From sequence record NC_105825.1: a stretch of 64,000 nt of DNA; one strand, 5' to 3'. Position numbers and translations under genes: made by a program. Position 1 is the stretch's first letter. Every line of letters starts with the position of its first letter. This document shows, piece by piece, positions 1,906-64,000 of this stretch. The notes beneath the pieces were generated by a model, which saw only the letters and a program-made list of their open reading frames with translations, had not been told where the DNA came from and ran no database searches. This DNA is from Escherichia phage ECOP18.

Positions 1906-4754
1906 TAAATGGATGCCCACTCCACAGACTGTTCTCCATCATCCCCTTCTGCCCTAATACGAAAATACAATTTTCTATTTATACCTAGAGCATCACTGTT
2001 CTGGAGAGCAAAGTCTGCCTTATTATATGTTAATAAATAGTCATAAGTATACTGATTTTCAATACGTACACTTCTTAACATCCTATTTTGCGAATCGTGT
2101 ATTTCAAGGGTATAAAATATACTCTCTATTATATCTTCTTCAGGTATTCTATCCCAGGCTAGTTTCACATCTGGGCCAACAAACTCAGTTACATCCCCAG
2201 AAGCCGTATTAGTTACCCTAAAATTAGATACTATACTTAGGTTTTTAGCAGAGTTAAGTTCTATAGATAAGGTTACTGGAGAACTTCTTCTACCATTTAT
2301 ATCCACAGCCCTTATTTCAAATATCGCTAAGCCTGCAGGCTCTCCAATTATCTCTTGGATCATGCGTTCATTGGGATTTGTTTCTAGTTGCTGCACAATA
2401 TAAGGCTCAGCATGCCCGGAATGCACGATAGAGTAATAAACTACGTTATTAGTTAAGCTTGGAAGCCAAGATAACTCACCATTTTTTCCTATAGAACCAA
2501 CTAAACCACCGGGTGTAGGAGTATATTTAAAATCTCTAGGAGGAAGAACGTTGTTACTAATATCTGGTATATCATTACCACTATTATCTACTTGATCAGA
2601 GTTGATAAATACATCTTCCCCATACTCCTGTAGAGTAACATTTATCTTTCCTTCTCTAGAGTTTTCGACTTCATCTACTAAAAAGTACTTCTTATCCCAT
2701 CCGTAACGGTCGTATGTAAATGCAATAGCATCGTTAGGCTCAATACCAATGAATTGATATGGTAAAGAAAATGAGAGGGTTCTAGAATACCTAGATTTCT
2801 TAAGTTCTCTGTCTGCAAAACTTCTAGCAGTATAGTAGTTAGTTATATTTGCAAAAGATAATTGTAATTTTTTATCTAAATTTTTATCCTGCTCTTTATA
2901 TTTAGAGTTATAAAAGGTAATAGAGTTAGTTTTCCAGCTAAGAGCTGGGTCTACTATGGATGCTTGAACTGAGTTGAATTTATTTCTACCAGTAGTATCT
3001 GATAGCTCTAAATCACCATAAGTATCCAGAAAATTAATCTCTAATGGAGTATTAGAATATTTTTCTACAGTAATCCTATATTGACCAGATAAGTTGTTAA
3101 TAGCCCCACCGTAGGATTCTAGTAAACCTTGCACATTTTTAAATACTGATTCAGATGTATCTAGAATAGTATTCATTTGTACTATTTGTCTATTTTCTGC
3201 TAATGGATCAGTCCACCCAACATATCTCCAGTATGGCTGCCAGGATACTTGGTAAGATTCATCTATAATATCTAAGATAGCAGCTTCTTGTACCAATTGT
3301 TGTAGGGGGAACTGATCAATGGTAATATTAGCGCCATATCTATCAGAGGTTAAGTAATCAAGTGTTTGCCAAATACCATTTAAACTAGTACTATTAGCGG
3401 TTACTCTACCATCAGAATGATAGACTTTTACTTTTTTACCTTGAATTTCAGCACTAACTTCTGGAATCTCAGTTCTGTTTTCATTAATAGTAAAACGCAC
3501 TACGGCATAAGCAGTATCTAGTAGCTTATATCTAGCATCCCAGTACTCAGGCCCATTGCCATTCATATTTTGAAGATAAAACCCGCGGTTTTTAGCTATA
3601 TCTACTAGTACTTCAGAAGCCGTTTGGTCAGGTTTTCCATGATACGTCCAAATTCTTATGTCACCATTACCATCATTATACTTATACTCCTGCCCATGCA
3701 CGGAAGGACTACTAGAAGGTGTTCCTGACGCTATTCTTTGCATGGTGTCTCCTGCTACTTTTTTAACACCGAAACAGGTTCTAGCAGAGCTATCATTAGA
3801 GTCCATACAAATCATAGGGTTATCCCCAAAGGAAAAGTCAAGAAAACCGTCTATCTCTCCTTCAGCAAAAGCATATACTACGTAAACTATATTAGGATTG
3901 TGTAATTCCGTATCCGCAAAAATAGGTATTCCCGGTATTTTCTGTACACCATAAACTACTGGTATATACTTAGCAGCAAGGTTAAAATCTATATCTACTT
4001 CTTTAGTAACAGTCTCATAATACTTTTTAAGACTATAACTTCTAGATAGTCCAAATAGCTTTTTCTTAGACTTTAGCTTGTATCTTTCTTCCTGTACCTG
4101 ATATTTTGCTAGGATAGAGATACTTTTATTAGAGTGGAAGAACCCATAGTCTTCTTGATACTCTGGTCTTTTAGCACCATTAGATGGTACTAACTGTCCA
4201 GCTACAACTTCAAGCCCCCTATGGGAAGCGTCATCAGTATATCTACCATTAACTCTATCAAAGTCATAGAATTGGTTAGAACAATTCCAGGTAATTGTAG
4301 AGGTTCCTACTCCAGAGGTACTAATGTTATCTTTAATACCCCCTCCAGTAATCCTCCCCCTAAAGTATAGTAAAGGACCGTTTGTATCTGGGTCTACTGG
4401 CAGAATAGAACCATCTTCAGTAATAATTGCTTGATGAATTGATACGGTTCTATCTAAGAAGGATACACCATTTTGCACTAGTTTTAACACTTCATCCTGT
4501 GCTGTACCAGTAATAGTAAAAGATAGACTACCAATAGATAAATCTCTATTTTGTTTGTGTGAGCTAATAGACTTAACTTTACCCGCCTGGTATAAGATGC
4601 CATTATATAGTACATTCCTAAAATAATCAGTTAAATAAATAAAAGCAGTACTAGTACCAGTAGAGCCAGGTAACTCTAGAGAAATTAGACTAGCAGTTTT
4701 TATTCTGCTATTATTTTTTAAGTAGTTTCTAGCACTATCTAGTATTTTTTTCAT
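1905..4754 (-). CDS. baseplate hub protein, pb3-like (949 aa)
   Basis: ORF track; size and position between distal tail protein and pb4-like gene match T5 (from memory). Confidence 0.6.
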   Translation of the reverse strand: MKKILDSARNYLKNNSRIKTASLISLELPGSTGTSTAFIYLTDYFRNVLYNGILYQAGKVKSISSHKQNRDLSIGSLSFTITGTAQDEVLKLVQNGVSFLDRTVSIHQAIITEDGSILPVDPDTNGPLLYFRGRITGGGIKDNISTSGVGTSTITWNCSNQFYDFDRVNGRYTDDASHRGLEVVAGQLVPSNGAKRPEYQEDYGFFHSNKSISILAKYQVQEERYKLKSKKKLFGLSRSYSLKKYYETVTKEVDIDFNLAAKYIPVVYGVQKIPGIPIFADTELHNPNIVYVVYAFAEGEIDGFLDFSFGDNPMICMDSNDSSARTCFGVKKVAGDTMQRIASGTPSSSPSVHGQEYKYNDGNGDIRIWTYHGKPDQTASEVLVDIAKNRGFYLQNMNGNGPEYWDARYKLLDTAYAVVRFTINENRTEIPEVSAEIQGKKVKVYHSDGRVTANSTSLNGIWQTLDYLTSDRYGANITIDQFPLQQLVQEAAILDIIDESYQVSWQPYWRYVGWTDPLAENRQIVQMNTILDTSESVFKNVQGLLESYGGAINNLSGQYRITVEKYSNTPLEINFLDTYGDLELSDTTGRNKFNSVQASIVDPALSWKTNSITFYNSKYKEQDKNLDKKLQLSFANITNYYTARSFADRELKKSRYSRTLSFSLPYQFIGIEPNDAIAFTYDRYGWDKKYFLVDEVENSREGKINVTLQEYGEDVFINSDQVDNSGNDIPDISNNVLPPRDFKYTPTPGGLVGSIGKNGELSWLPSLTNNVVYYSIVHSGHAEPYIVQQLETNPNERMIQEIIGEPAGLAIFEIRAVDINGRRSSPVTLSIELNSAKNLSIVSNFRVTNTASGDVTEFVGPDVKLAWDRIPEEDIIESIFYTLEIHDSQNRMLRSVRIENQYTYDYLLTYNKADFALQNSDALGINRKLYFRIRAEGDDGEQSVEWASI

Positions 4755-5474: not shown

Positions 5475-8400
5475 TTAAGAATTTCCTAATGTTTTCAGAC
5501 TAGCACCGTTCTCATTCAGAGCTAATTCTACTGCGTCTCTTAGAGCACCACTATTACTAGAGGCAAACTCTCTAAAACTTGCAGCATCCATAGCACTAAT
5601 ATTCAGGATGATAGGTCTTCCTGAAGTTGAGTTAGACGAGGTTTTTAGCTCATCATTAGGTGTAGCTTTCATAGGAACCATAGGGGTAACTACTTCTGTA
5701 CCATGCTCACCCATTTGATAGCTAACCCCTGGATACATATTACCACCCTCAGCACGAGGAACGAAAGAGTTGGCACTACCTATACCTTGATCGCCACGAA
5801 TATAAGATAGTTCACCTGCATTAGCAGACATGGACACATCTATATTCTTCTGACGCTCTCCTAAGGTTAAGTAACTAGTTGTATCCGCCCCAGAATCAGC
5901 AATACTTGACATACCAGATGCAGAAGATGCTTGTGCTAACGCCAATGCACCCGCTAAACCTGCCGCAACCATTAAAGGAATAGAGAACGGGTATGGTACA
6001 GCTGTTGCCGCTTGCATTACAGCTACTGCAGTTTGGATGATAATCTGCTTCTTAGCTGCATCTTGTTGAATCTTCAGCTTTTCAGCTTCTAGCTTCTTCA
6101 ATTTAGCTTTAGATGCTTCTGATTTACCATCACGTTTCTGCTCTGCTGCAATAGCCTGATCAATTGCACTAACCTGTTGACTAGTACTATATTGGATCAT
6201 AGAGGCTACGGTCTGCATACCGGAAGCAATCATAGATGTAGTATCTAAAGATCCCTGGGAGAATTGAATCATAGCATTGGTTAGGTTACCCATGCTTTGA
6301 GCTACAGCGGTTGCTTCAGAGTTTAGCTCAGATAGTTTAGAGATTGCCTGATCATAAGAAGCCATTCTATTTTGCATATCAGCAAAATCTTTATCTTCTC
6401 CAGATAATCCAGTTGTAGGGGTATACACAGCACCTACAGAAGACCCTACCTGTTGCTGCATCTGGCTATCTCTCTGTTTTCTAAGCTGTTCTAAGGCTGC
6501 TGAAGTTTTATAAATCTCATTACGATATTTAATTTCTTCTTCAGTATTACCTTTAGACAGCTCCAGCTGCTGCTGCAGAATAGATAACCTTTCAGTGAGA
6601 ATCTGGGACTGACCAGTGACATTTCTCTGCGTTTGGCTAACCTCTAAGGCATCCATAAGGGCGGATACATGAGTAGCAGTAGCTTGTTTCTCTGCTTCCC
6701 ATAACTCTCTACTTATCTGTGCTTGAGCACGTCTAGACTGTTCTGCCTCTTTTTGTTTATCCGCTTGTTTTAAGTACCACTCATATTTTTCTTCCTCTAT
6801 AGTTAGTTCTAGCTTTAACTGTGCTAATCTATACTGAGTGCTAGTCATAGTACGGTCATTCAGAAGAGCTATCTCACGATCTACACCCAGAATTTTATCT
6901 GTGTAATCCTTGACCTTTTTCTGGGCTTCCATACCCTGATTAGTAAGCTTAAGTTTCTCCAGCTGAATTTTTTCAATTTCTTTCTCAACAGCTTTATTTC
7001 CCTGGTTTGTTTGAAGAACACGGCGTAAAGCAGCTTCTTGCTCTTCTAACTGTTGCAACTCTAAACGTCTACCAGCTTCCTGAGCCTTTTCCTTATCCTT
7101 AGTTTGATTATACACATCGGCTATTTTCTGTTGAACTGCTAACTGATTTTTAGTTTCATTACCAGTTAGTTTAACATACTCGGACAAGGCCTGAGAAGCA
7201 GTTTTCATCTCAGATAACGTATTATAGCCTAAATTAAGATTTTTAACATACTCATCTGCACTTTTACCCGTACCTAGAGATAGAGATTCTATATTTTTTA
7301 TAGCATCTGCTAAAGTAGCACTAGTTTTAGCAGCAGTATCTGTATTCTGAGCAACGTTCTGTATATCATTAGCTAAGTCACTAGCAGTTTTCTTAGTCTG
7401 ATTGTACGCTTTCTGCTGCTCGGTTAGTCCTTTTAATACAGTAGAGTTAAAATCGTATACAGCATCAGGATCAGTAGTATCTCTCTGTAGATTAATTTGC
7501 TTCTGAAACTCGGGGTTAGCTTTTGCAGCAGCAGCTCCAGCAGCTTGATACGCTGATTTCCAGGCATTAAGGTTTTCAGTAGAATCCTCTACTTCCTTAC
7601 CAAGTCTAGTTACTTGTAGACCCATAGCTGCAGTTTCTGCTACAAATTGCTTATTGGCCTCCGAAGCACCTGCTGCTGCAAGACCAACAGGAATACCTTC
7701 ACCAACTTGACGTATAGCTAGTTTTGTATAGAAATCTGCTTGTTCCATTCGTTTATCGAACTCAGATTTTAGCTTATTACGCTTATCAAGAGATTCCTTA
7801 TACATATCTAGAGCTTTATTATAGCCTTCTTCAGAAGCAGCTAAACTTAAAGCAACAGCACCAACGTTGGTAGGGTCTATCTGTCTATTAGTTTTTTCTT
7901 GAGCTCTAGCTGCCTCCGCAGATATAGAAGCCTGAGAGGTATAAAATACTGTGTTGATAGCATCAATTACTGGCCCTAAATACTTAGCAGCAGCTTGTTG
8001 TATTTTTCTTAGTGCAGCATCTGCATTAGCAGCAAATTGCTCCCATGGAGTTGCACGTAGTACTTCATCTAGGTAGCCAAACCGCTTAGTAGATTCAGCA
8101 ATTACCGCGTTAGCGTATGCTTGTTGTTTCTGGAAAGTGGTAAGACTATTAACATTATATGTTATACCTGTGTTTGCAGCATTTAACTGTTTAACATAAT
8201 CAGCGTATGCGTCATTAAGACGGATGGTGACACCAAGTTCATCTAGAAGTTCGATTTCTTGTTTAGATACGCCCTTAATTACACGGTTAAGTGCATCAGT
8301 CATATCAACACCAAGAACAGCAGCAGCACGACGAGCTACTAAACCAAATTTATTAAGTTGTTCGGCATCAAATCCATAAGCAGATGCTGAAGATGCCTGT

Positions 8401-45553: not shown

Positions 45554-45967
45554 TTAAACTAGTTCGACATGACCGCCATCATAGGTACCACGTTTTATTT
45601 CATCGTGATAATCTCCTGAAGCATTCCAATCGGCACCAAAACGAAGTTTAATGCCTAGTTCTTTACCAGCTTGTTCAAAAGCCTTTTTAACTGCCCAAAA
45701 TGCTTCTAGGTCATTCCAATCAATCTTGCCATTAATGTATGGAGCAAAATCAAGAGCATCTCCAGTAATATGCTTGCTTTTACTAGGATCTTTTAAAAAT
45801 GAAGTACCATTAGCAATATTCTGGGCACTTTGTGCTACTGTACGAATACCCTGTACGATCGTGAAATCATATGGAGATAATTCTAAAGCTCTACGAGCTA
45901 CTTTTTGTAGCTCTGGCTTAACGGTAGCTAATTGTTTTTCGCTATTTTTACCAAATTTAAAACTCAT
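45554..45967 (-). CDS. endolysin, M15-type L-alanyl-D-glutamate peptidase-like (137 aa)
   Basis: His/Asp metal-ligand pattern (H...D...H) and size as T5 endolysin (from memory). Confidence 0.55.
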   Translation of the reverse strand: MSFKFGKNSEKQLATVKPELQKVARRALELSPYDFTIVQGIRTVAQSAQNIANGTSFLKDPSKSKHITGDALDFAPYINGKIDWNDLEAFWAVKKAFEQAGKELGIKLRFGADWNASGDYHDEIKRGTYDGGHVELV

Positions 45968-46620
45968 ATTGATCTACCTAAAGATCTCTGTTGTGGGGAA
46001 CAGAGCTTTGTTAAATACTCGTTAAATTTCTCAGAATCGGCTGCATCTACAGGATTATCTTTCCAAGCAATACCAATATATCCAGCATAGATATTGTTTA
46101 GATTGAAATACGGACAAGTGTATATGTAATTAAAAGTAACGTTCTTAAACGCAGGTATATTTAACCCCATGTATTTATTTACTTTTACACTTAAATCCGA
46201 CGCGTAGTTAAAGCCGTCTAAGTGACGTCTATATAGCTCAGACGTCTTATTTACCGCTTTATCGGCCAAGTCAGCCCTATCTAATTGCGCATTGCTTTCC
46301 CATGCAATAATGTTAGAATAATCATTAATGGCATCGGGTTTATACTTGACTACAAAAACAGCATCCGCACCCGTTTGGGAAAAAAGCACCATGCTCTTTT
46401 CTCTAGCTACGTTAGGAAAATTACTTATCCTTTGAGTTTGAACATCCTGTAGAACCGCAGACGTGGAGAAAGTCTTTAAGAATGACATCACCTCACTAGT
46501 ATTACTAACAAATAAGAAAATAATGACAGCAACTAAGATAGTTAGCAGACGTTTAAGAAGCGATGCTGGATCTTTCGCTTCTTGGAGCAGTACCGTTAAT
46601 AATTGTAAGAACTTTTCCAA
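45964..46620 (-). CDS. holin-like membrane protein (218 aa)
   Basis: Directly upstream of endolysin; N-terminal TM helix. Confidence 0.45.
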   Translation of the reverse strand: MEKFLQLLTVLLQEAKDPASLLKRLLTILVAVIIFLFVSNTSEVMSFLKTFSTSAVLQDVQTQRISNFPNVAREKSMVLFSQTGADAVFVVKYKPDAINDYSNIIAWESNAQLDRADLADKAVNKTSELYRRHLDGFNYASDLSVKVNKYMGLNIPAFKNVTFNYIYTCPYFNLNNIYAGYIGIAWKDNPVDAADSEKFNEYLTKLCSPQQRSLGRSI

Positions 46621-61000: not shown

Positions 61001-61570
61001 TTAGAAATTTAGCTTCATAGCAAGAAAATTTTTCAAGTTTTCGGTAGACATCTCATCCACATCTACGGGAGAAACAAAGCCGTTTAATTTTCTAGCAAAT
61101 TTTTCACCCGCAGGATCGTTGTCTCCGACAGCTACCAATTTAAAAGGTAATAATTTCAGTTGCTTTAATAACGCTTTTCCTGGAGAAGAACCTAACATTG
61201 CCAGGGCTGGATAACCAGCGTTATGTAGCGCAACTGCCTTAAATACAGATTCAGCGATCAATACTACTTTTTCATCTCCATTGAGAGTTTCTAGTCCCCA
61301 TACACACTGGGTAGTAGAATAAGTAAAATATTTAGCTTCAAAGGGACACTTACTATGACCTTTTGGAGCAGAAGGATTATACGTCTGATAGCCTCGCAAC
61401 ATCCCGGAGAAGTCATACAACGGGACTGTTAGCCATCCTTCCGGACTTAACCAGCAATGATATTTATCTGTATCAAATCCTCTGGATAAGAGGTGCTGTG
61501 TTAGCTCATCAACATTCATATTTGGTTCCTCTCTCAAATTTATAGATATATTATACAGAGAATTTAGCAT
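61001..61570 (-). CDS. small Toprim-domain protein (189 aa)
   Basis: Toprim-like acidic motif LVAVGDNDPAGEKFARKL preceded by a Glu-containing strand (VLIAESVFKA); N-terminal Cys/His pairs. Confidence 0.45.
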   Translation of the reverse strand: MLNSLYNISINLREEPNMNVDELTQHLLSRGFDTDKYHCWLSPEGWLTVPLYDFSGMLRGYQTYNPSAPKGHSKCPFEAKYFTYSTTQCVWGLETLNGDEKVVLIAESVFKAVALHNAGYPALAMLGSSPGKALLKQLKLLPFKLVAVGDNDPAGEKFARKLNGFVSPVDVDEMSTENLKNFLAMKLNF

Positions 61571-61578
61571 TCAAGCAA
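61550..61578 (-). promoter_or_regulatory. early sigma70-type promoter (-35 TTGCTT, 17 bp, -10 TATAAT)
   Basis: Read on minus strand. Confidence 0.6.
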
Positions 61579-61694
61579 TCAAATTTTTTAACTTTTTAGA
61601 GGAAAATCATAGGGCACTTAAGGGTAGCAGATAAGTGGGGAGGACCAAAATTTGTGACCCCACTAAAAATCCGGGGGCAATTTTTAAAGACCCC

Positions 61695-61723
61695 TTGACA
61701 TTTTCGCTGGGGTAGTGTAAAGT
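61695..61723 (+). promoter_or_regulatory. sigma70-type promoter (-35 TTGACA, 17 bp, -10 TAAAGT)
   Basis: Upstream of plus-strand island; RBS aggaggtg follows. Confidence 0.5.
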
Positions 61724-61785
61724 ATATGTTATGGATGAGTGATCAAAGAGACACACATTTTCTATATACTAGGAGGTGTCAAAAT

Positions 61786-62775
61786 ATGACAGAAGAAGTA
61801 GCTAAGAGTCCTGAGACCGTCGCTAGCGTTGCAGCAGAACTGCACCGTCACGAGGAATCAGATAAGAAAAAGTGGGAGAAGGTCAGAGTCTACGAAGAAA
61901 AACATCGTGAACACGATGATGAAGAAGAAGATGACGATGATGAACATTGTCATAAATATGGAAAACATAAAATGCAAGAACCAGTAAACGTATTCACTAG
62001 TGGCTTCCCTGGCCTACTGGGTGGTTACCCAGCAAACGCAGGTGCTTTCGGTGGTGAAGGTATGGGACTATTCGGAGCTATCCTAATCGGTGCTCTATTA
62101 ACCGGCGGATTCGGTGGTTTCGGTGGATTCGGTGGACGTGGTGTAGTTGGTGAAGGTACCGCAGTTGATGCAGTACTTCAGAACCAAGATACCGCTAGTA
62201 TTCTAGCAGCTATCAACACTACTCGTACAGAGGCTAACCAGGGTACTGGAGCTGTTTTAAGCGCAGTTAACAATGGTTTTAGCCAGACAACCCAAAACCA
62301 GAGCCGTGATACTCAGTCTGTACTAACTACGATCTACGGTACAGGTGCTAATCTGTCTAATCAGATCTGCCAGGAAACTCGCAACGTTATTCAGGGTCAG
62401 TTCGATCTTTCTCGCCAGATTGATCAATCTTTCGCAGCTAACCAGATAGCTCGTGCACAAGATAAGTTTGATTCTGCACAGATCGCTTTCCAGCAGACTT
62501 TACAAACTAATAACCAGTTTGCCGCTGTTCAGGCTCAGATGTGTGCTAACCAGAACTCTCTGGAACGTCAGATCGCTGAATGTTGCTGTGAACTTCAGAC
62601 TGCGATCGCTGGTGTAACTACTGCGCGTATCCAGGATGAGTTAGACGCATGTCGCCTACGTGAAGCAATCGCTGCGGGTAGCGGTGCTAACGGTCAGGTA
62701 ATTAATCAAATCGCTTTAAGTCTTGGTGCTATCACTCAGACTCTGGCTGGTCTGCAGGCTAAACTGCCGGCTTAA
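61786..62775 (+). CDS. hypothetical protein with acidic N-terminus, glycine-zipper hydrophobic segment and Gln/Asn/Thr-rich C-terminus (329 aa)
   Basis: Start moved to ATG at 61786 with RBS aggaggtg; segment GLFGAILIGALLTGGFGGFGGFGG. Confidence 0.55.
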   Translation: MTEEVAKSPETVASVAAELHRHEESDKKKWEKVRVYEEKHREHDDEEEDDDDEHCHKYGKHKMQEPVNVFTSGFPGLLGGYPANAGAFGGEGMGLFGAILIGALLTGGFGGFGGFGGRGVVGEGTAVDAVLQNQDTASILAAINTTRTEANQGTGAVLSAVNNGFSQTTQNQSRDTQSVLTTIYGTGANLSNQICQETRNVIQGQFDLSRQIDQSFAANQIARAQDKFDSAQIAFQQTLQTNNQFAAVQAQMCANQNSLERQIAECCCELQTAIAGVTTARIQDELDACRLREAIAAGSGANGQVINQIALSLGAITQTLAGLQAKLPA

Positions 62776-62796
62776 TATTAAGGGGAGGAGCCCCTT

Positions 62797-63213
62797 ATGA
62801 GTAAATATGGTTTTGTAAATAACGGACTTAATCAAAGTATGGGCTCCCAGCAGCCCATTCCGGGTCTGGATAACCCCTACTTACAACAGTTGCAACAGCG
62901 TTTAGCAGAAGCGCAACAGATGCAGCAACAACTCCAGCAAAACCCTGGAAGTGTGAGTCCTATGCAAATGATGCAGCAAATGAGCGGGCAGTCGCAAATG
63001 CCTCAACAAATGCAGCAACAGGTGCCTCAGCAGCAAGTTCAGCAACAAACCCAACAACCGCAGGTTTCTGCGGAAGGACAGGCAGTACTAGCCCTTTTCG
63101 AAGACTTCGCAAAGACAGAGGATGGGAAACAGCTTGTATCACTTATGGGTAAGTTTAATAGCTTCTGCCAAAGCCAAGTTGCAAAAGCTCAAAATGGGGG
63201 TAGTAACTCCTAA
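62797..63213 (+). CDS. hypothetical Gln-rich low-complexity protein (138 aa)
   Basis: RBS ggggagg; long QQ-rich tract. Confidence 0.5.
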   Translation: MSKYGFVNNGLNQSMGSQQPIPGLDNPYLQQLQQRLAEAQQMQQQLQQNPGSVSPMQMMQQMSGQSQMPQQMQQQVPQQQVQQQTQQPQVSAEGQAVLALFEDFAKTEDGKQLVSLMGKFNSFCQSQVAKAQNGGSNS

Positions 63214-63222
63214 GGAGGAAAT

Positions 63223-63417
63223 ATGTGTTGCAGAAAATCTGTTTCGTGCTGCCCAGTGCCTGTAGCACGTTGTTGCTCTCCAGCAATGTTTACGCAAATA
63301 CCGGCGTTCAATCCCTTTGCCTTTAAACCTACTCTTATCCTGCCCCCTAGAGTAGATTTTCAGTCAAGATTGGCCTCCCGTATGGGTGGTTGCTGTACAC
63401 CGAGAGTATGGTTCTAA
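63223..63417 (+). CDS. small Cys-rich protein (64 aa)
   Basis: RBS aaggagg; CC and CxxC pairs. Confidence 0.4.
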   Translation: MCCRKSVSCCPVPVARCCSPAMFTQIPAFNPFAFKPTLILPPRVDFQSRLASRMGGCCTPRVWF

Positions 63418-63430
63418 ACCAAAAACAAAA

Positions 63431-63464
63431 GCCCCTGCCGAAAGGTAAGGGGCTTTTTCTTTTG
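63431..63464 (+). terminator. rho-independent terminator
   Basis: gcccct...aggggc hairpin followed by ttttt. Confidence 0.6.
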
Positions 63465-63472
63465 CCTTAAAT

Positions 63473-63507
63473 ACAGAAAAGCCCGCGCTCTCGTAGGAAA
63501 CGCGGGC
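63473..63507 (-). terminator. rho-independent terminator for convergent minus-strand gene
   Basis: gcccgcg...cgcgggc hairpin with U-run on minus strand. Confidence 0.5.
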
Positions 63508-63532
63508 TTGGTTCGAAGATTACGTGTAACTA

Positions 63533-64000
63533 TTACTTGTTACGCATATCCATGATCATTTGACCATCGTAGCCAGTACCTACCACAGTCTGAGGTACAC
63601 CACCTTGATACTTCTGAGCACGGATCATTTCAACTTCCAGTTGTTTCCAACGAATCATTTCAGGAGTAATGGTACGTTGCAATGCGGCGTTAGCTTCAGC
63701 TTCTTTCTTAGCTGCGTACAGTTTAGCATCTGCGTCACGTTCATTAGCAATAGCTTGGTTGTTACGAGCTTCACGATCTGCTTCTGCTTGTTTAACTTTT
63801 TGCTGTGCTTCCTGTTCAACGCGAGCAAGTTCAGCTTTCGCAGCATTAACTTGCTCTTCACGAACTTTGGTATTCTGTACCTGTTCCATGATTACTGGCG
63901 GCAAGGTAATATCCTGAAGGAATACCTGCTTAACTGTGTAACCATATGGGCGCGCATACTCTTCAACTTCCTGTTGAATTGCAGTTTGCAATTGAGCCTG
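63533..64000 (-). CDS. SPFH/band-7-like protein (partial; N-terminus beyond window end)
   Basis: C-terminal coiled-coil tail rich in Glu/Ala/Lys after a QDITLPP-type segment; resemblance is weak. Confidence 0.35.
   Translation of the reverse strand, partial: QAQLQTAIQQEVEEYARPYGYTVKQVFLQDITLPPVIMEQVQNTKVREEQVNAAKAELARVEQEAQQKVKQAEADREARNNQAIANERDADAKLYAAKKEAEANAALQRTITPEMIRWKQLEVEMIRAQKYQGGVPQTVVGTGYDGQMIMDMRNK

Follow-up and report, generated by a model that had tools for sequence, protein, structure and literature searches.

We analyzed a 64,000-nucleotide stretch of the genome of Escherichia phage ECOP18 (NC_105825.1; hereafter, the window), which comes from a T5-like phage (Demerecviridae, Markadamsvirinae). 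Positions 61695-63464 hold a sigma-70 promoter, three plus-strand genes that encode proteins of 329, 138, and 64 amino acids, and a strong terminator; the flanks are made up of minus-strand early genes and tRNA genes. This operon corresponds to T5.077-T5.078-T5.079 of T5 (NC_005859) and to the open reading frames (ORFs) 327aa, 138aa, and 64aa of Salmonella phage 5 (AJ604531), where its promoter is named P12 and its terminator ter1. It has been annotated since 2004, with all three products described as "hypothetical." An earlier note on this DNA, written from the sequence alone, had picked out the same promoter, ORFs, and terminator at positions that we confirm.

The promoter (TTGACA-17 nt-TAAAGT; 61695-61723, plus strand) matches 10 of 12 consensus positions, with a perfect -35 hexamer, and it is the sole promoter-like match in 61400-63700. 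It coincides with the annotated P12 of T5 and of Salmonella phage 5, and the 100 nt of the promoter region are 96-99% identical among diverged T5-like phages, which makes this the best-conserved block of the region. Gene 1 (61786-62775, plus strand, with its ATG at 61786) encodes the homolog of T5.077, a predicted single-pass membrane protein of 329 amino acids that belongs to phrog_8119. It is preceded by a Shine-Dalgarno sequence, AGGAGG (61771-61776, plus strand), and AJ604531 annotates a ribosome-binding site at the same place. Gene 2 (62797-63213, plus strand) encodes the Gln-rich, 138-residue homolog of T5.078 (phrog_7894). Gene 3 (63223-63417, plus strand) has AAGGAGG just upstream of its ATG, and it encodes the 64-residue homolog of T5.079, with four Cys-Cys doublets (MCC, SCC, RCC, and GCC). 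Clear Shine-Dalgarno sequences precede genes 1 and 3, and AJ604531 annotates ribosome-binding sites before all three genes. The Rho-independent terminator (63420-63464, plus strand) is a GC-rich hairpin followed by a T-run, with a folding energy of -22.8 kcal/mol (z = -4.6; 0 of 200 shuffled sequences were as stable). It is annotated as an "efficient bidirectional terminator" or ter1 in T5 and phage 5.

In megablast comparisons, identity over 61600-63520 is 99.8% with Escherichia phages T5_ev212, SUT_E520, and EC148 and 89% with T5. This orthology and synteny with the T5 operon (89-99.8% identity over the full length) agrees with the annotation tables of NC_005859, AJ604531, and BB1. At the protein level (tblastn), genes 1, 2, and 3 are 80%, 96%, and 92% identical to their T5 counterparts. 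The gene order, strand, promoter, terminator, and flanking primase-like and SPFH genes are the same as in T5 and phage 5, and the differences from T5 are allelic only. Residues ~118-183 of T5.077 (62136-62335) come in two forms, NNGFSQTTQNQSRDTQS versus NG----VGAAQAASTQQ, and DNA identity falls to 57-77% there. The C-terminus of T5.079 (63394-63417) also comes in two forms, CCTPRVWF in the window and CCNKSIWF in T5. These allelic forms are shuffled among phages, which suggests mosaic recombination within the cassette.

All three ORFs look translated, and they are under purifying selection. Across nine T5-like alleles, the median ratio of nonsynonymous to synonymous substitution rates (dN/dS) was 0.15 for gene 1, 0.20 for gene 2, and 0.39 for gene 3. 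In a sliding analysis of gene 1, the ratio was 0.03 in the glycine zipper, 0.02 at residues 133-162, and 0.06-0.12 in the C-terminal half; the sole relaxed part was the acidic/His-rich linker, where the ratio peaked at 0.85. (These regions are described below.)

The alternative would be that the block is a remnant in decay, with one or more ORFs, especially the 64-codon one, untranslated. Gene 3 is left out of most annotations; it lacks a PHROG family and shows the weakest purifying selection of the three, with a mild third-position bias (the first, second, and third codon positions have 8, 9, and 15 variable sites). But 28 of 28 T5-like loci have an intact gene 3 of exactly 64 codons, with a ribosome-binding site and all eight cysteines invariant, and the gene is full length in 219 of 220 records (tblastn). 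Also, ORFs of 60-69 codons that start with MCC and contain more CC doublets hold the same position in two diverged contigs (L004 and L005) and in the Pseudomonas phages RSP and KPP23, whose gene 3 sequences otherwise barely align to T5's or across lineages. Given also the strong purifying selection on genes 1 and 2, we consider a decaying, untranslated remnant to be very improbable. We also considered whether the DNA of gene 3 is unusually conserved, and the identity profile did not bear this out. The earlier note had allowed for two simpler outcomes, untranslated ORFs or conserved core T5 genes of known function. The substitution ratios and the constant length of gene 3 speak against the first; as for the second, the operon is not core and its products are hypothetical.

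The operon is not found in all T5-like phages. Among 373 T5-like records that match the region, ~216-221 hold the block, and ~150 match only the last ~70 nt (the terminator). The phages without the island include rokbiter, S116, BD13, falkor, Seafire, and mar003J3, and they still match 63450-63520. The BASEL Markadamsvirinae that carry it include Bas26 GreteKellenberger, TrudiGerster, and IrmaTschudi. A comparison of Sw2 with rokbiter (blastn) gave 96-99% identity in both flanks and a clean 1,765-bp gap. The extent of this natural deletion corresponds to approximately 61630-63385 of the window (plus strand; positions 899-2663 of the Sw2 locus, L021), which coincides almost exactly with the self-contained unit of opposite polarity that the earlier note had delimited.

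The note had also described this unit as inserted, which is probably the wrong direction. The deletion scars differ: of gene 3, the final 32 nt remain in rokbiter and the final 44 nt in SUT_E1620. Because genomes without the island retain the 3' end of gene 3, the block is ancestral in the subfamily and was deleted independently. Its presence and absence reflect repeated loss, with at least two breakpoints.

The operon is dispensable. In a CRISPRi-ART screen of T5, T5.077, T5.078, and T5.079 were all classified as "Not Fit," with fitness values of -4.83, -4.26, and -3.79 and Kolmogorov-Smirnov p values of 0.95, 0.85, and 0.59, respectively (PMC11879866, supplementary file 16). Searches of 5,426 complete E. 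coli genomes and 72,556 plasmids found no copy of the island. This is an accessory operon of T5-like phages, and it is probably transcribed early, by the host RNA polymerase, from its own sigma-70 promoter.

In Epseptimavirus, the slot between the primase-like gene and the SPFH gene also holds a PnuC-like nicotinamide mononucleotide transporter and a NadR-like nicotinamide-nucleotide adenylyltransferase, whether the island is present or not. These salvage genes for nicotinamide adenine dinucleotide (NAD) lie at positions 2086-3820 of the rokbiter locus (L016) and at positions 1-800 of four other loci (L019-L022). This slot is a hot spot where accessory cargo is found, perhaps including NAD-related counter-defense.

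This raises the question of whether the operon itself is a counter-defense module, whose products would form a complex that neutralizes a host anti-phage system, such as a membrane-acting abortive-infection effector, and that is needed on some hosts only. An accessory, often-lost, early-type cassette in a variable slot would fit this idea, as would a knock-down without a fitness cost on a laboratory strain. But there was no match in PADLOC or other libraries, we saw no diversifying selection, and the spread of T5.077 relatives from crAss-like to T5-like phages (see below) would require a very general target. We think that a counter-defense role is unlikely.

Outside the close relatives of T5, the three genes travel together as a unit between phage groups, as judged from sequence comparisons. 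The diverged T5-size contigs L004 and L005 have all three genes, with order and polarity unchanged and gene 1 at 43% identity. The Pseudomonas siphophages KPP23 and RSP, which have 63-kb genomes and are unrelated to T5, encode a trio of 320, 143, and 60 amino acids. Their gene 1 is 58-60% identical in the C-terminal half, their gene 2 shares a domain with the pattern EDGKQLV..GKFN.FCQS, and their gene 3 has the form MCC..QCC..RCC..DCC. In KPP23, the trio opens an early operon on the DNA-metabolism side of the genome, divergent from the terminase genes and oriented towards an exonuclease. A scan of IMG/VR with the gene 2 profile returned T5-like contigs only.

By architecture, the island is a moron-like accessory cassette. 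Like a moron, it has its own sigma-70 promoter and terminator, a polarity that is independent of its neighbors, presence/absence variation between collinear genomes, a related copy in an unrelated phage group, and a GC content above that of the window. But classical morons are prophage genes whose expression benefits the lysogen, whereas the island is found in strictly virulent Demerecviridae and in KPP23-like phages, and its polymorphism reflects the deletion of an ancestral block and not a fresh insertion. The GC content (0.47, against 0.39 for the window) is a weak argument for a recent foreign origin, as most of the excess falls on the first and second codon positions, through Gly, Ala, and Gln codons, and the GC content of third positions is raised only slightly. 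The protein content matches no known system. The earlier note's failure to match the operon to any system still holds after searches of Pfam, PHROGs, NCBIfam, PADLOC, PDB sequences, and the literature and a structural comparison with Foldseek.

Specifically, Pfam and NCBIfam gave nothing meaningful for the three proteins, only sub-threshold matches to RIFIN and other compositional matches. The PHROGs to which these proteins could be assigned are all of unknown function. None of the three matched PADLOC, and members of the wider family of T5.077 had two trivial, coiled-coil-level matches there (E = 0.005-0.009). Sequence and profile searches of PDB found no relative of T5.077, T5.078, or T5.079. 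A full-text literature search found no paper that mentions the locus tags T5.077-T5.079. We also considered a paper on an antiholin, ORF52 of phage BSPM4, which is unrelated: BSPM4 is a Chi-like phage.

T5.077 has several distinct parts. Its N-terminal 90 residues contain 22 D/E, 12 K/R, and 7 H. Within them is a conserved helix with an HExxD motif, VAAELHRHEESDKKKWEK (residues 12-45; 61819-61920, plus strand), which is apparent from the alignment and has high AlphaFold confidence (pLDDT 88-95 for residues 11-40). It is followed by a variable acidic/His-rich linker, which reads HHYHHHHHEH in the allele from EscoHU1, and then by MQEPVNVFTNGFPG. Next comes the glycine-zipper hydrophobic segment, GMGLFGAILIGALLTGGFGGFGGFGG (residues 92-117; 62059-62136, plus strand), in which G92, G94, G102, G111, and G113 are invariant in the alignment of the T5.077 group. 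The top 19-residue hydropathy window of the protein lies here (LFGAILIGALLTGGFGGFG, residues 95-113; Kyte-Doolittle score 1.72), and a hydropathy scan found no second hydrophobic segment. Acidic residues precede the zipper, and a conserved Arg directly follows it. The earlier note had called the combination of a glycine zipper with low complexity typical of proteins that insert into membranes or form condensates. A membrane-associated product is plausible, but the segment is marginal: it has ~11 strongly hydrophobic residues among the glycines, and its pLDDT is under 50.

The C-terminal 204 residues of T5.077 are 16% A, 15% Q, 9% T, and 8% N. The AlphaFold model is all-helical, with long helices at 136-274 and 280-326. 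With an alignment of 18 sequences, the model was poor (pLDDT 49); with 126 sequences, pLDDT rose to 63, but the model consisted of nothing more than long helices. Inside the longer helix is an invariant Cys-Cys-Cys (residues 266-268, in IAECCCELQ; 62581-62589, plus strand), which is found throughout the alignment of the T5.077 group and in at least 90% of the sequences in alignments of the wider family.

Close homologs of T5.077 are found only on ~110-kb contigs. On profile evidence, T5.077 belongs to a large phage-only family that includes crAss-like phages and whose members have a glycine zipper, an invariant CCC, and ~200 residues of predicted polar helix (Q/N/T/A). When 1.8 billion cluster representatives were searched with a profile, 182 matched at E < 1e-3. 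A second search gave 465 proteins at E < 1e-5, none of which has a name; many are encoded on metagenomic contigs of phage size (up to 172 kb). Using hhalign, the T5.077 group matched the wider family with 99.9% probability (E = 8e-31; 214 aligned columns). PHROGs divides the family into 8119, 9288, and 16490, all of unknown function, and the profiles of these PHROGs match each other. Motifs that are common to the wider family are NFTTLSSINGLGRD, ALQQLNSFN, CCCE[IL]K, and DGxATRALIN.

Most members of the wider family are 240-290 amino acids long and start directly with the glycine-rich hydrophobic segment. The members that lack the N-terminal extension also lack neighbors that resemble gene 2 or gene 3, and they have other partners. 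Since the extension is absent where the partners are absent, the extension and the two partners appear together. We considered homology between T5.078 and the Q-rich neighbors in the wider family and rejected it (hhalign probability of 0.3%).

Many of the more distant profile matches cover only the ~70-residue region around the CCC, so this region may be an autonomous module. Two such matches (P0071 and P0111) share only this region (..ECCCE[LV]KEK..); outside it, they are long proteins (426-685 amino acids) of repetitive, helical sequence that lack the glycine zipper.

The wider-family gene heads a conserved module of its own in 29 non-redundant loci (among L046-L090, L006, L012, L014, L024, and L026). 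A beta-rich protein of ~95 amino acids with the motif FQNTG...SATNYDF is present in 23 of these 29 loci, and in 22 it is the next gene. It is followed by either a ~60-residue protein or a ferritin-like protein of 175-200 residues (phrog_17879), then by a ~90-residue protein, and then by DUF7841.

The wider-family gene is often found among structural genes. In 5 loci, a crAss-type major capsid gene immediately precedes it; in L010 and in eiAU (gp08), it follows tape-measure or tail genes; and in L012, it is between capsid and connector genes. These locations raise the alternative that T5.077 is a virion-associated or assembly protein, such as a trimeric fiber or an ejection or channel protein, with the glycine-rich segment as a membrane-inserting or capsid-anchoring element. 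The Q/N/S/T/A-rich composition, which resembles the coiled coils of fiber and fusion proteins, is consistent with this, as are weak PDB matches to influenza HA2 and coronavirus spike (see below). However, the trio of the T5-like phages and KPP23 is in an early region behind a sigma-70 promoter, and whole lineages delete the block without replacing it. Also, no solved virion protein was found with the profile, and in KPP23, ORF080 is marked as a "virion protein" while ORF074 is only "hypothetical." A role in the virion therefore seems unlikely to us for the T5 operon.

T5.078 has an N-terminal helix (YLQQLQQRLAEAQQMQQQL), a Q/P/M-rich linker, and a 40-residue conserved C-terminal domain, SAEGQAVLALFEDFAKTEDGKQLVSLMGKFNSFCQSQVAK (residues 91-130; 63067-63186, plus strand). 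The domain has 20 invariant columns, including one invariant Cys, across the T5-like phages, L004, L005, and Pseudomonas phage RSP. The total length of T5.078 varies from 106 to 144 amino acids across relatives, and this variation is through the linker, so the Q-rich stretch acts like a variable-length linker that joins two conserved ends. The earlier note's description of three low-complexity proteins fits this linker and the acidic/His-rich linker of gene 1, but the rest is well conserved and ordered.

Some homologs of T5.078 are labeled "kapc" or "cAMP-dependent protein kinase catalytic subunit." This label is in AY587007 and then in many later records, among them those for ESCO30/40, HMD-P3/P4, STWB21, JLBYU40, and Sepoy. 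Pfam finds no kinase domain in T5.078, and about half of its 138 amino acids are the Q-rich linker. The label is a propagated artifact of this linker.

T5.079 has four CC doublets, a Pro-rich stretch, and an FNPFAF motif, and Cys makes up 12.5% of its residues (8/64). Reading the sequences of T5.078 and T5.079 by eye, we saw no signal peptide, hydrophobic leader, or lipobox.

The cysteines bring up another potential function for the operon, as a metal or redox module. T5.079 would be a thiolate peptide similar to metallothionein, T5.077 would bind metal through its CCC and its His/Asp/Glu-rich linker, and the complex would sequester or deliver the metal at the membrane. In favor of this are the eight invariant cysteines of T5.079, the invariant CCC of T5.077, the one invariant Cys of T5.078, and the His-rich linkers in EscoHU1, P0057, and eiAU gp09. 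Also, the ferritin-like phrog_17879 is encoded within two genes downstream in 9 of the 29 wider-family loci. But its match to the Ferritin family of Pfam is below threshold (E = 6e-4; 20.2 bits, against a cutoff of 24.5), L004 and L005 keep only two of the CC doublets, and we found no metal-binding motif, family, or PDB match. If the C-terminal domain of T5.077 is periplasmic, then its CCC is more likely to be oxidized than to bind metal. Overall, we consider a function in metal or redox chemistry to be doubtful.

The only PDB matches of the wider-family profile were to influenza HA2 (the fusion peptide and the first heptad region; E = 0.002-0.05) and to coronavirus spike (E ~0.03). The protein in the window contains GLFGAI, which is identical to the N-terminus of HA2. 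Like class I fusion proteins (HA2 and heptad repeat 1, or HR1, of S2) and the inner-membrane spanin Rz, T5.077 combines a glycine-rich hydrophobic peptide, a long polar helix of heptad type, and a shorter C-terminal helix. In contrast to the fusion proteins, it has no C-terminal anchor; the matches are marginal, and the T5.077 profile alone matches nothing. Foldseek with the T5.077 model against PDB returned only vimentin, with E > 6. The resemblance to HA2 and spike is best viewed as convergent composition and architecture, which would make it an analogy and not homology.

If the resemblance were functional, T5.077 might be a device for membrane fusion or remodeling, with a fusion-peptide-like segment, an HR1-like polar coiled coil, and a short C-terminal helix, comparable to class I fusion proteins, SNAREs, and spanins. 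The placement of the hydrophobic segment near the N-terminus in most members of the family would fit, along with the HA2 and spike matches and the GLFGAI motif. However, the E-values are driven by composition, the profile of the T5.077 subfamily has no matches, and the structural search came up empty. A second membrane anchor and a lipoprotein partner are also missing, and T5-like phages already have a spanin pair. We view such a device as improbable. A bolder version is that the T5.077 family is a widespread new class of phage membrane-remodeling proteins, with a coiled coil that is locked by the three cysteines and a back-packing helix, which act like a class I fusion protein or SNARE on bacterial membranes; in the branch of T5 and KPP23, a Q-rich tether and a metal-binding CC-doublet peptide would exert control from the cytoplasmic side. 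Phages from the crAss-like group to T5 would then have a novel type of envelope machinery in common. This too seems a long shot.

Our preferred explanation, which we hold tentatively, is that T5.077 forms an oligomer in the inner membrane that, with two cytoplasmic partners, conditions the envelope of the infected cell. T5.077 would insert once into the inner membrane and would self-associate via the glycine zipper and the long helix to form a coiled-coil oligomer. The N-terminal extension of ~90 residues would stay in the cytoplasm, where it would dock the signal-less T5.078 and T5.079, and the conserved cysteines of all three proteins might hold the assembly together, via metal or disulfides. 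The complex would then block or delay a membrane event, either the entry of a superinfecting genome or the timing of holin-dependent permeabilization. We favor an envelope-conditioning role because of the early-type promoter, the non-essentiality of the operon, and its repeated loss. We also infer that the operon is not part of replication, the virion, or a canonical lysis cassette.

If the complex affects superinfection, the natural comparison is to exclusion proteins such as Imm and Sp of T4 and Llp of T5. T5 is known to invest in superinfection exclusion via Llp (PMC4342426). Like these proteins, T5.077 would be an early-type, non-essential, membrane-directed accessory product of a virulent phage. 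But it is not homologous to them, it is much larger, and it lacks the signature of diversifying selection. Also, T5.077 is conserved over phages that have different entry machines, which is unusual for exclusion factors.

If the complex affects the timing of lysis, it might be compared to class III holins (T4 gp t with RI and RIII). The similarity is in architecture only: an N-terminal cytoplasmic segment, one hydrophobic segment, and a large C-terminal domain that contains cysteines. Small, signal-less partners that could act on the cytoplasmic end are another feature in common with gp t and its antiholins. Glycine-zipper packing is common in hole-forming transmembrane segments. In contrast to class III holins, T5.077 does not match any holin family in Pfam, PHROGs, or NCBIfam, and its promoter looks early. 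Endolysin genes are near the wider-family gene in two loci that we inspected by hand (L006 and L014), but endolysin is not a recurrent neighbor across the 29 loci.

The phage's own lysis genes are at 45554-46620 on the minus strand, ~15 kb from the island. They comprise a 218-residue holin with a single transmembrane domain (class III, T4 t-like; 45964-46620, minus strand), directly upstream of a 137-residue L-Ala-D-Glu peptidase endolysin (45554-45967, minus strand). T5-like phages also encode a spanin pair (PMC6658699, PMC4342426). Because the holin and endolysin genes are found at this other site and spanins of their own are encoded by T5-like phages, the operon is not a lysis cassette, and we rejected the identification of its products as a holin or a spanin. 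Furthermore, a two-component spanin such as Rz/Rz1 includes an outer-membrane lipoprotein, and the island lacks such a partner (no lipobox was seen in the products of genes 2 and 3).

Several observations weigh against an envelope-conditioning complex. First, the hydrophobic core is short, rich in glycine, and disordered according to AlphaFold, and it may not span the membrane. Second, the topology of T5.077 is ambiguous, and the positive-inside rule favors the opposite orientation, with the C-terminal domain inside; in that case, the CCC and the cysteines of the partners would share the cytoplasm. Third, the sliding dN/dS of gene 1 never exceeds 1, and its maximum (0.85) is in a low-complexity linker, which is not what we would expect of an exclusion factor in an arms race. 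Fourth, the position of the wider family in late or structural blocks would better fit a role in the virion or its assembly. Fifth, lysis inhibition is not known to occur in T5. And last, the CRISPRi-ART screen is insensitive, as several capsid and tail genes were also "Not Fit" or only "Semi-Fit" (PMC11879866).

Of the results presented here, the locus, its promoter, and its terminator were already annotated in T5 and phage 5. What is new is the coding evidence for the three ORFs, the polymorphism and the finding that it arose by deletion, the evidence from Pseudomonas phages that the trio is portable, and the recognition that the CC-doublet peptide is conserved. T5.077 is also newly assigned to a large family, with a gene module of its own, that extends to crAss-like phages. 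The function of most phage gene families is not known, and these results do not make any long-standing question directly testable. They do turn an orphan annotation in a classic model phage into a defined experimental target, and natural variants (Sw2-like phages with the island and rokbiter-like phages without it) allow a direct comparison of phenotypes. If the operon does control exclusion or the timing of lysis, this would be relevant to the design of phage cocktails: T5-like phages are in wide use against both Salmonella and E. coli, and the block is missing from ~40% of these phages.

The genes next to the operon are all on the minus strand. Upstream are nine tRNA genes and the divergent T5.076-like gene (61001-61570, minus strand), which is annotated as "DNA primase." Its product has 189 amino acids and matches Toprim_2 from Pfam (E = 2.6e-5) and positions 141-337 of the 435 positions of phrog_849. 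Only the Toprim part of the primase profiles is matched, so it is unlikely to be a complete primase.

Downstream, the earlier note had seen a convergent SPFH-like gene, and this is the SPFH/Band-7 lipoprotein gene T5.080, on the minus strand from 63533 (phrog_200, E = 1e-37; the match to Band_7 from Pfam is below threshold, with E = 0.008). We considered a functional tie between T5.080 and the island and rejected it: the SPFH gene stays after the island is lost, and there is no SPFH gene beside the trio in KPP23 or RSP. In L005, the gene that is convergent with the island (6573-7145, minus strand) encodes a 190-residue protein with an N-terminal hydrophobic stretch instead of the SPFH lipoprotein; by eye, it is LemA-like.

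The terminator hairpin of T5.080 (63479-63509, minus strand) is outside of the cassette and survives the deletions. In T5, a "major DNA single-chain interruption" (a 32.6% nick; NC_005859, 39746-39747) is annotated just 3' of the island's terminator and inside this hairpin. At the equivalent place in the window (~63479-63509), the minus strand contains the nick-site consensus, AGCGC.

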